Assembly (NCBI GenBank): GCA_000002435.2
Contig: CM018793.1
Direction: 5' to 3' (one strand)
Length of the DNA: 64,000 nt
Source of the DNA: Giardia intestinalis
Taxonomy: Eukaryota
Position numbers and translations under genes: made by a program
Notes under the pieces: generated by a model
Databases searched by the model: none
Seen by the model: the letters and a program-made list of their open reading frames with translations, nothing else
Told to the model about the DNA's origin: nothing
Shown: in pieces, positions 58,967-61,276 of the stretch
How the letters are laid out: each line of letters starts with the position of its first letter
How positions within the stretch are numbered: the first letter of the stretch is position 1

Positions 58967-60658
58967 GTGATATGCACAGCAGCCAGTAGTGGAGTGTGCA
59001 CTGAGTGTAATACAAATAGTCAGTACATATTCCAGAACCCTGCTACAGCACCAGAGAAGGGTAGCGAGTGCATCCTGTGCTGGGATACCAAGGGAGCAGA
59101 TGGATATACGGGAGTGGAGAACTGCGCCACATGTACAGCACCAAGCACCCCAACGGCTGCCACGTGTGATACCTGTCAAGATGGATACTATAAAGATGGT
59201 AACGGCGCATGTACCAAATGTCATACCGACTGCGAGACGTGTAATGGAGCTGATCAGAATGCGTGCACCTCTTGTAAGGATGGAAAGTATCTGAAAGGTG
59301 GAAATACGTGTTCATCTACATGTGAAGGAAACACTTACCCTGACCCTGTGACAAGGACATGCAAGGATTCTAGTATAGTAGATTGCACCACGTGTGAGTA
59401 CAACCCGGCAACTGGGGGCCCAAAGTGCACAGCCTGTAACGGTAAGATAGTCAAGGAAGAGGCCGACGGGACGACAACGTGCGTCGAGGCAAATGGGTGC
59501 GCTCGAGATGGCCAAGCAGGCACGCACTTTCTGAGTGACAACAACGATAAGTGCATTCTGTGTAGCGATACAACAACAGGAACAGGAGCAAGTAACCAAG
59601 GAAAGGACAACTGTAAGACATGTACTAAGGCTGGTTCAGGACAAGCACCGGAATGTTCAGAGTGTCTGGATGGATTCTTCTTTGAAAAGTCATCAAAGAC
59701 TTGTTCGGCTTGTCATCAGAACTGTGCTACGTGCTCTGAAGCTACGACAGAAAATAGGTGCGAGTCCTGCTATCCAGGATACTTCTTGGTTGTATCTGGT
59801 GCTGATAAAAAGTGTGTCCCATGCGATGATGCACAGAATCAAGGGATCGAGGGCTGTGCCGAGTGCACTGGTACTACAGGATCCCTCAAGTGCACAAAGT
59901 GCAAGCCTAACAGGAAGCTCGCTGGAAACGAGGGGGACCTCACATGCACAGAGAAGACCTGTGAAGATGATACTGCCTGCGGGGGGACATCTGGAGCCTG
60001 CGATGCCATAGTGATTGATGATCAGGGCAATGCAAAGCACTACTGTTCCTATTGTGGGGATAACAGTAAGGTACCAATTGATGGGAAGTGTGTTGATAGT
60101 GGTCAAAAGAATGGGAATACTTGTACCAGTCACATATGTACACAATGCACCAACAACTACTTCCTCTACATGGGAGGGTGTTATAAAGCAACAGAGGTGC
60201 CTGGTAGCTATATGTGCAAGACAGCAGATAATAAGGGGATATGCACAGAGGCGGCCAACAATAAGTACTTCATAGTCCCAGGGGCATCCAATCAGAATCA
60301 GTCTGTACTAGCATGTGGTAACCCCCTAGGCACACTAGTAGATACTAAGGCATACGTGGGGGTCGAGGGCTGCTCTCAGTGTACAGCCCCGACAGCTCTA
60401 ACAACAGCTGGCATGACCGCTGCTGTGTGTACCTCTTGTGGTGAGAGTAAGAAGCCCAACAAGGATGGCACTGGGTGTGTGCTGTGCTCTGTGGGTGATT
60501 GCAAGAGCTGTGTGATGGATAATATATGTGGGGAGTGCAACAGTGGCTTCAGCATAGACAATGGTAAGTGCGTGTCCTCTGGCAGTAATAGGAGCGGGCT
60601 CTCCACGGGGGCCATCGCGGGGATCTCCGTGGCTGGTCTCGTTGGGCTTCTGTGTTAG
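58967..60658 (+). pseudogene. VSP copy H, a divergent paralog truncated at both ends: no start codon or signal peptide, and the TM/CRGKA tail is destroyed (...ISVAGLVGLLC*)
   Basis: The 3' end reads ...gggatctccgtggctggtctcgttgggcttctgtgttag, against the array consensus ...gtcgctgtggtcgtcgtcgtggggggcctcgtgggcttcctctgctggtggttcatatgtagagggaaggcatga. There is a deletion within the TM segment and a premature stop. Confidence 0.6.
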
Positions 60659-61276
60659 TGATGACTACTGGCCCGGGGTGGGCATCCGCTGTCCATCCGC
60701 CCGGTGCTGCTACGTGCCCGTGGAGGTCTGGACGCCCGCTGCAACCAGGGTGGAGAGAGTCGGCGCTGCAGCACCCCCGCTGGGTCTCGCCGTGAGTGAG
60801 GGCAGAAGCTCTCGGGGGCCCCGGGGGCAATGCCTGATGTGCAGAGCAGTGGACAGCTCAGCCGTGGATTTAAAATAGCGCGTCGCTCGATGGCGCTCCC
60901 CGGCCTGCCGAAGCAGCGGGTGCTCGACTGCGTAGCATAGGCGCCGAACCACGCCTGCAGCCGTGGGAGGCCGGCGCAGCATGGGCGGTCCCTGCACCGG
61001 GTGGCTCGGACCCGCCACCCGGCCGTTGCGTGCAGGCACCGCCCACTCGGTCCGCTCGGCTGGCCTCTGCAAAAGACCGGCACACGGAGTGGCAGGACCT
61101 GTGCACCCCCGAGGGACAGGGGCTCGACTCGCCCTCTGAGGATCGCTCCGTGCCGACTCCGGGCCCGCCGTTCGACCACGCGGAGGCCGGGCATCCGGGA
61201 GCCTCCACAGCAGAGGTAGTGTGGCGGATCCTTGCTGATCCGGACACATTAAAAACTTGTATCCTCAGGGATTCAC

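Follow-up and report, generated by a model that had tools for sequence, protein, structure and literature searches.

Head-to-tail arrays of incomplete VSP genes, called linear arrays, are known from Giardia intestinalis. In Adam et al. 2010 (PMC2996952), the downstream members of these arrays are described as having no initiator and are proposed to be unexpressed cassettes or discarded genes. Arrays of multiple VSP pseudogenes (pVSPs), and pVSPs truncated at the C-terminus, are described in a later preprint (Rodriguez-Walker et al. 2022, bioRxiv 10.1101/2022.03.07.483299). The present analysis concerns the 3′ edge of one such array, which lies in a 64,000-nucleotide stretch of G. intestinalis DNA (the window). 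By matching sequence strings to tables S1 and S7 of the preprint, the window was assigned to chromosome 5 of isolate WB (NC_051860.1). The array consists of eight units, referred to as A to H, and is followed by a GC-rich spacer and an HCMP gene (Table 1); units B to G match the table sequences of GL50803_0050033 to 38. The reference genome and the preprint both annotate all eight units as pseudogenes (PMC7000408; bioRxiv 10.1101/2022.03.07.483299). The array, the pseudogene status of its units and the HCMP gene are already known, being present in the reference genome and in three papers. The features that a first-pass annotation of the sequence had described were all found at the coordinates it gave.

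No difference in kind exists between this locus and the described pVSP arrays (PMC2996952, PMC7000408 and the 2022 preprint); its units have already been annotated as the pseudogenes GL50803_0050032 to 39. As in those arrays, the units stand head to tail with gaps of ~55–75 nt, the downstream members have no start codon, signal peptide or PyAATGTT, the CRGKA tail and the extended VSP polyadenylation signal are retained, and near-identical pairs point to duplication. Three features, in contrast, are not spelled out in the available text of this literature. One is that a truncated tail and an ATG-less head form a frame that recurs across loci and in both sub-assemblages AI and AII. Another is that the GC content at third codon positions (GC3) is far higher in the frame than in the bodies. 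The last is that the head unit and two other units show RNA at a level equal to that of the HCMP gene. What is added here is the conserved head-and-tail frame around a variable array, the recognition that one gene model in the spacer is probably spurious, and the refutation from published data of silence for the three measurable units.

We consider it very probable that the feature is the 3′ edge of the known linear array set in a fixed frame, that the RNAs of A, B and H are present but untranslatable, and that the spacer is ordinary intergenic DNA. The GC-rich frame would be composed, in order, of a 442-aa hypothetical gene, a VSP head without ATG, a VSP tail truncated by TAG, a 618-nt non-coding spacer, and an intact Group 3 HCMP gene. 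A variable number of VSP bodies with ~50% GC would lie between the head and the tail. The flanks (40–46 kb and 60.6–64 kb) have a GC content of 55–68%, and the remaining ~40 kb of the window has ~46%; the array, with bodies of ~50% GC, accordingly sits within a GC-rich domain. GC3 amounts to 0.87 in the HCMP gene, 0.75 in the head of A, and 0.67 in the 442-aa open reading frame (ORF), against 0.49–0.51 in the unit bodies.

The right-hand border of the frame is formed by the end of unit H. The reading frame of H is open over 565 codons with zero internal stops, and it begins at the mid-VSP point WSVICT, as do those of units B, C, E and F. An in-frame ATG first occurs at codon 403, as was to be expected from the earlier claim that H has no start, and the N-terminal Met with signal peptide of a functional VSP is absent; H is entered as ORF N, SP N in table S7 (bioRxiv 10.1101/2022.03.07.483299). 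Its ectodomain is that of a cysteine-rich VSP, with 12.0% Cys, 25 CXXC motifs and a match to PF03302 (Pfam VSP; E = 2.4e-20). The tail reads AGISVAGLVGLLC followed by the stop, and similarity to the other units in the nucleotide comparison stops at about position 60635. As compared with G, an 18-nt in-frame deletion (VVVVVG) is seen in the transmembrane segment, and the premature TAG, previously noticed, stands at 60656–60658 on the first Trp codon of CWWF (TGG in the other units). H had been said to lack both the transmembrane segment and the CRGKA tail. CRGKA is indeed missing, but the transmembrane segment is truncated and not absent, ~16 hydrophobic residues being left of the ~25 aa of a functional VSP. 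AGTRAAY is found 8 nt past the stop in each of A to G and is not found past H, which likewise carries no extended VSP polyadenylation signal (ACTYAGRTAGTRAAYGC-like) soon after its stop. In table S6 of the preprint (bioRxiv 10.1101/2022.03.07.483299), the motif GACTCAGGTAGTGAATGCTA is listed for GL50803_0050032, 33, 35, 36 and 38; a search of this table found four other units of the array and did not find GL50803_0050039. A repeat search of 60400–61400 gave nothing beyond a single 14-nt imperfect inverted repeat (60450–60463 / 60638–60651, AGAAGCCCAACAAG / CTCGTTGGGCTTCT, 93% complementary), which flanks the conserved tail of H and is probably due to chance.

The age of this tail can be judged from related sequences. 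A homology search with the spacer ORF found a 2.2-kb ENA metagenome contig (L001) that spans the whole junction. This contig belongs to sub-assemblage AII, because its HCMP N-terminus matches ESU35370.1 from isolate DH with 100% identity over 228 aa. It is 95.8% identical to positions 60569–61961 of the window with one 1-nt indel, and it carries the same shortened transmembrane segment and the TAG at the same position; upstream of 60569, its VSP body is a different sequence (~70% identical). A second contig, AHGT01000182.1 of isolate DH (AII; 3417 nt; L003), matches both sides of the array, namely 44728–46059 (93.1%) and 60569–61083 (93.2%), and it also has TAG at the TAG position of H. Between both matching blocks lies a single VSP body, ~70% identical to every WB unit. 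In WB itself, a paralogous trio is present on the same chromosome (GL50803_00114445, GL50803_0060176 and GL50803_00114891). The letter 'd' in a WB locus tag denotes a duplicated gene (Xu et al. 2020, PMC7000408). The paralogous locus, which was studied via protein entries and supplementary tables, has an array of its own, made up of at least six other units (GL50803_0050049 to 54). The entry XP_001704228.1 of the old WB annotation is identical to the last 81 aa of H, and it probably belongs to the paralogous locus, since its accession directly precedes that of the paralogous HCMP (XP_001704229.1). Because the same tail, TAG and spacer stand behind different bodies in AII and apparently in the WB paralog, the frame is conserved both across paralogous loci and between the two sub-assemblages, while the enclosed bodies are of different sequence and apparently of different number.

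The 5′ counterpart of this tail is the head of unit A, in which a signal-peptide-like LLIPLFVVSALA stretch occurs without a preceding ATG. The TAG of the 442-aa ORF (GL50803_00d114445) is in frame with the open frame of A and directly abuts it. The same arrangement exists in the DH contig, but there an ACG to ATG change makes a start, and the product is annotated as a 749-aa 'VSP' (P0059). In WB, at least four copies of the 442-aa ORF exist, and its 90% identity cluster comprises 37 members. A solitary VSP (P0057) at 10001–11974 of another ENA Giardia contig (L002) also has an N-terminal region that closely resembles the head of A (CQ..KCETVGSAEICTQC...GFCWPPGSPQAAAAGC); this VSP ends in a normal CRGKA tail and is set among kinase and ankyrin genes. 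Head-type sequence thus exists outside arrays too, and this contig was rejected as a related locus, being an unrelated solitary VSP locus.

That H was until recently a complete terminal VSP, and lost its tail in place by a point mutation, is a very unlikely explanation. The change from TGG to TAG does involve one base only, and similar stop-at-Trp cases with continuing sequence are reported in the preprint (bioRxiv 10.1101/2022.03.07.483299). However, the deletion and the TAG are common to the AII contigs, whose flanks have diverged by 4–7%, and apparently to the WB paralogous locus, so that the lesion predates those splits; in addition, no convincing continuation into CRGKA is seen after the TAG. 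The broken tail of H would rather be an old, inherited right-hand border of the frame. The earlier description of H as a decayed terminal copy is therefore misleading, the more so as its body has neither stop nor frameshift. The divergent units A, B, C, D and H show 58–69% protein identity, dN/dS of ~0.3 and open frames throughout. Since the differences in the body of H have this dN/dS and all frames are open, they were acquired under coding constraint or by copying from coding genes, and not through neutral decay in place.

An assembly artefact of the repetitive region, producing the truncated copy and its GC-rich junction, is still less credible and can practically be set aside. The array does hold 1.8-kb units with 100% identity, and duplications of ~20 kb are, according to Xu et al. 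(PMC7000408), at the limit of read resolution. Nevertheless, two independent assemblies from other isolates show this junction as well (the metagenome contig and the DH contig). It is also present in the 2007 Sanger gene models, where XP_001703928.1 equals the last 162 aa of H including the stop. Apart from these last 162 aa in the old annotation, no exact protein entries were found for the units translated from their first ATG.

With regard to expression, the array units and the HCMP gene can be compared in Table S1 of Rojas-Lopez et al. 2021 (PMC8700996), which gives encystation RNA-seq values on the new WB genome as log2 counts per million (CPM) for 35 samples. The mean log2 CPM is 5.62 for A, 5.16 for B, 4.11 for H and 0.18 for E, as compared with 4.83 for the HCMP and 4.05 for the paralogous HCMP; typical neighbouring genes have values of 6–10. 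The HCMP value is equalled or exceeded by A in 32 of the 35 samples, by B in 22 and by H in 9. H is on average ~0.7 log2 units below the HCMP, and the two are nearly equal per kilobase (3.34 vs 3.51). These published data show that the uniquely assignable units A, B and H are represented in the steady-state RNA, at a level as low as that of the HCMP next to them. No rows for the pseudogenes occur in the expression tables that accompany the 2022 preprint. The log2 CPM of B varies strongly by culture series (means of 3.86, 6.50 and 5.22) and is 8.05 in T2 cysts; intact VSPs likewise vary between populations and rise in cysts.

These values bear on the view taken in the first-pass annotation, according to which the array is transcriptionally silent, its units having neither promoter nor start, and the HCMP is the only expressed cysteine-rich gene of the block. 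No unit is preceded by an ATG with signal peptide, by PyAATGTT or by an AT-rich element, which accords with that view, as do the proposal that downstream array members are unexpressed (Adam et al. 2010, PMC2996952) and the value of nearly zero for E. The levels of A, B and H contradict it, however; pVSPs are among the cyst-induced transcripts (Rojas-Lopez et al., PMC8700996), and the low value of E is expected if multi-mapping reads were lost. Silence of the array is consequently unlikely. The first-pass annotation had itself named RNA levels of the array copies equal to or higher than those of the HCMP as evidence against silence, and such levels are found for A and B in the published table. 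The step from missing promoter to silence fails also at the motif level: no AT-rich 9-mer is present in 45000–46159, yet A reaches its RNA level, so that absence of an AT-rich element does not predict the RNA level here. The argument that a gene without a promoter motif must be silent is unsafe in Giardia, as start-less pVSP units match the RNA level of an intact neighbour.

The other half of the earlier claim, that the units cannot be translated into surface VSPs, stands. None of the units A to H has an ATG ahead of a signal peptide, and the PyAATGTT (YAATGTT) initiator was not found anywhere in 45–64 kb; the downstream members, without this initiator and a proper start codon, conform to the definition of a pseudo-VSP linear array. 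Since the units are without start codon, signal peptide and initiator, no unit can make a surface VSP. For the measurable units A, B and H, the description 'transcribed at low level but untranslatable' fits better than 'silent'.

The spacer between H and the HCMP gene was correctly described as very GC-rich. It had also been called open in all frames, which is a slight overstatement: overlapping ORFs do exist on both strands, but each of the six frames contains 2–6 stops, against 4.4 expected from composition. As the stop counts are near this expectation, the overlapping ORFs are a chance product of GC-rich DNA. An Rfam scan of 60400–61400 at E ≤ 1 gave no match, nor did a Pfam search with the GC-rich spacer ORFs. 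The spacer has diverged from the metagenome contig by 4.0%, with 1-nt indels, and the 5′ part of the HCMP gene by 3.2%.

One of these ORFs is annotated in the current reference as a 179-aa protein on the minus strand, GL50803_00d60176 (KAE8304726.1), and it has a WB paralog, GL50803_0060176, with a single amino-acid difference. That the 0.6-kb stretch really encodes this protein is highly improbable all the same. In the database, its only relatives are this paralog and one AII fragment that loses the frame after ~68 residues, and no homologues were found outside assemblage A. Both AII contigs are thrown out of frame by a 1-nt deletion at 61041, and the DH contig has a second deletion. The 20 substitutions relative to the metagenome contig are distributed 6/9/5 across the codon positions, with no bias of the kind expected for coding sequence. 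The product is rich in Arg, Pro, Ala and Gly and is overlapped by ORFs on both strands, as expected at 68% GC, and the paralog (GL50803_60176) has a mean log2 CPM of −0.44 in table S1 of Rojas-Lopez et al. To judge from these patterns, the annotated ORF is probably spurious, an artefact of GC content, and deletion of the gene models GL50803_00d60176 and GL50803_0060176 may be considered. Despite the annotated ORF, the most plausible reading of the spacer is ordinary intergenic DNA carrying the HCMP promoter; the first-pass annotation had likewise called it non-coding.

The spacer had further been reported to contain no AT-rich initiator, which is not quite right, as two AT-rich elements, TTTAAAATA and ATTAAAAA, are present. 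Positions 61181–61283, including the last 96 nt before the HCMP ATG, are identical to the metagenome contig; at 4% divergence this would occur by chance with a probability of ~0.015–0.02, and it lends weak support to a constrained promoter region there. The more distant TTTAAAATA might act as the promoter of a transcript that is unannotated or sterile. A 16-codon ORF begins 13 nt past it (ATG at 60891).

The HCMP gene (GL50803_0087706) is a full member of HCMP Group 3 (CRMP in the 2022 reclassification) and does not differ from it. The protein has 833 aa with 11.5% Cys and 34 CXXC motifs, and it matches Pfam VSP with E = 1.7e-47. Its N-terminus is MRVLILLLLHGIFSEC, with a signal peptide encoded by 61277–61330 (the call is taken from table S1 for a paralog whose first 100 residues at least are identical). 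A transmembrane segment at residues 780–803 (63614–63685) is followed by a 30-aa basic cytoplasmic tail other than CRGKA. All the features that define this group are thus found: a signal peptide, at least 4% Cys with CXXC/CXC, one C-terminal transmembrane segment, and a non-CRGKA tail. The AT-rich upstream element, the signal peptide and AGTAAAC are all present, as had been noted, and the HCMP is indeed the only intact cysteine-rich gene of the block. Substitutions relative to the AII copy are biased to the third codon position (4/4/14), with 11 synonymous and 7 non-synonymous codon changes, a pattern that indicates purifying selection. Since WB paralogs with 96–97% identity exist (GL50803_00114891, KAE8301266.1), reads and peptides of this gene are 'not unique', and the peptide evidence in published tables consists of non-unique peptides only. 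The gene is expressed according to both the encystation data above (PMC8700996) and the preprint tables, in which its logCPM is 4.14 (bioRxiv 10.1101/2022.03.07.483299).

Table 1. Positions of the array, its units and the flanking features in the window
Feature	Position	Strand	Basis or remark
Pseudo-VSP linear array, eight head-to-tail units A–H, GL50803_0050032 to GL50803_0050039	45454–60658	+	ORFs, open frames, table S7 sequence matches
Unit A, pVSP GL50803_0050032	45454–47691	+	Table S7 match
Unit B, GL50803_0050033	47755–49488	+	Table match
Unit H, GL50803_0050039, annotated 'pseudo High cysteine protein', 1698 nt	58961–60658	+	Open frame, Pfam VSP, table S7
Flanking 442-aa hypothetical ORF, KAE8304725.1 (GL50803_00d114445)	44125–45453		Database match
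GC-rich head of unit A (GC3 0.75), 5′ counterpart of the frame	45454–45990	+	93% conserved with DH contig to ~45990–46059
G–H spacer with VSP-type extended polyadenylation signal of G, AGTGAAT (58917–58923)	58910–58960	+	Motif position
Truncated C-terminal tail of H: conserved NRSGLSTGAIAGISVA stretch, shortened transmembrane segment, TAG	60569–60658	+	AII identity begins at 60569
GC-rich intergenic spacer including HCMP promoter-proximal region	60659–61276	.	618 nt, 68.4% GC
Hypothetical 179-aa protein GL50803_00d60176 (KAE8304726.1), probably spurious	60710–61249	−	Exact database match
AT-rich element TTTAAAATA	60869–60877	.	Motif scan; identical in both AII contigs; ~400 nt upstream of HCMP ATG
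AT-rich element ATTAAAAA, candidate core promoter/initiator	61248–61255	+	22–29 nt before HCMP ATG
HCMP Group 3 (CRMP) gene GL50803_0087706, XP_001705127.2	61277–63778	+	100% identity over 833 aa to KAE8304727.1
AGTAAAC polyadenylation signal of HCMP	63782–63788	+	3 nt past TGA stop

The interior units of the array carry clean signatures of recent duplication and patch conversion. Units C and F show 100% identity, E shows 99.4% identity to both, and D and G show 99.4% identity to each other. The DNA of 49369–53291 is duplicated at 55025–58947 (3.9 kb, offset +5656) with 11 mismatches, all of which fall within 52905–52974. In this 70-nt patch, the translation of G reads like units A and B, and the patch looks like a gene-conversion tract. 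The internal units end with CRGKA, the stop, the VSP-type polyadenylation signal and a spacer of ~55–75 nt; measured from the stop to the next open frame over the eight units, the gaps range from a few nt to ~65 nt, in keeping with the average of ~60 bp that is typical of linear arrays. From these patterns, internal units would expand, contract and be patched via unequal crossing-over and gene conversion, with breakpoints at conserved VSP motifs, near GSEICT on the 5′ side and near NRSGLSTGAIAG on the 3′ side.

H has no close intact relative: the best database match, an array-type unit without signal peptide from another isolate (P0055), is 67% identical. The two share an exact 85-aa tract in the variable region, which makes H a clear mosaic. 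In the protein comparison, mosaicism was observed between array-type units only, in the form of this tract and the conversion-like patch. Silent arrays of donor cassettes are known elsewhere, as in trypanosome VSG pseudogene arrays, Borrelia vls cassettes and Anaplasma msp2 pseudogenes. By analogy only, the present array resembles them in having tandem, start-less, open copies of a surface-antigen gene with mosaic relationships. It is unlike them in that the protein comparison revealed no sequence passed on by this array to an expressed VSP, and in that VSP switching in Giardia is regarded as epigenetic or post-transcriptional and not recombinational (Adam et al., PMC2996952).

As to what the frame may be for, one tentative idea is that its ATG-less head, TAG tail, GC-rich flanks and Group 3 HCMP, a set that recurs at several loci, constitute a maintained docking site, in which VSP bodies are shuffled, amplified and transcribed at a low level, serving as a recombination reservoir and/or as an RNA source for post-transcriptional VSP silencing. 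We regard this idea as doubtful. If it were true, the arrays would be more than junk left by unequal crossing-over.

Several points weigh against the reading given here, in which a low-level transcribed but untranslatable array is set in a conserved frame. The promoter role of ATTAAAAA is one that we presume from what is generally known of promoters in Giardia. For the tail at the WB paralogous locus, protein entries are the only source, its position being deduced from adjacent accessions and not from DNA. In DH, the evidence for a single unit is one 3.4-kb draft-assembly contig, in which a collapsed array is possible. In the comparison of H with the intact WB VSP proteins, no exact tract longer than 25 aa was found, those present falling in conserved regions, and a donor role of the array toward expressed genes thus appears unsupported. 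Units C, D, F and G are missing from table S1 of the encystation data, presumably because of multi-mapping reads, and the two 'd' genes are likewise missing; the value of E, a near-identical copy of C and F, is almost zero. Moreover, the counts may include cross-mapped reads from related VSPs, part of the signal could be antisense, as the library strandedness is unstated in PMC8700996, and the HCMP counts are also lowered by its 96–97% identical paralogs.

The consequence of the locus for annotation is small, because the array, the pseudogene status and the HCMP are already annotated. A full-text search on the flanking gene identifiers found no paper. A conserved frame with differing contents does, however, provide a concrete place where array turnover can be measured between isolates.

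Some minor observations concern the units and their spacers. A 715-aa ORF at 5546–7693, located 39,998 nt upstream of the listed ORF of equal length in A, proved to be a threonyl-tRNA synthetase, and the match in length is coincidental. The inter-unit spacers resemble degenerate GTGATAG-type repeats. Every one of them (e.g., 58924–58960) contains TACAATGTG, which is one base off the VSP initiator CAATGTT and opens a 5-codon ORF (MCDNG followed by a stop).

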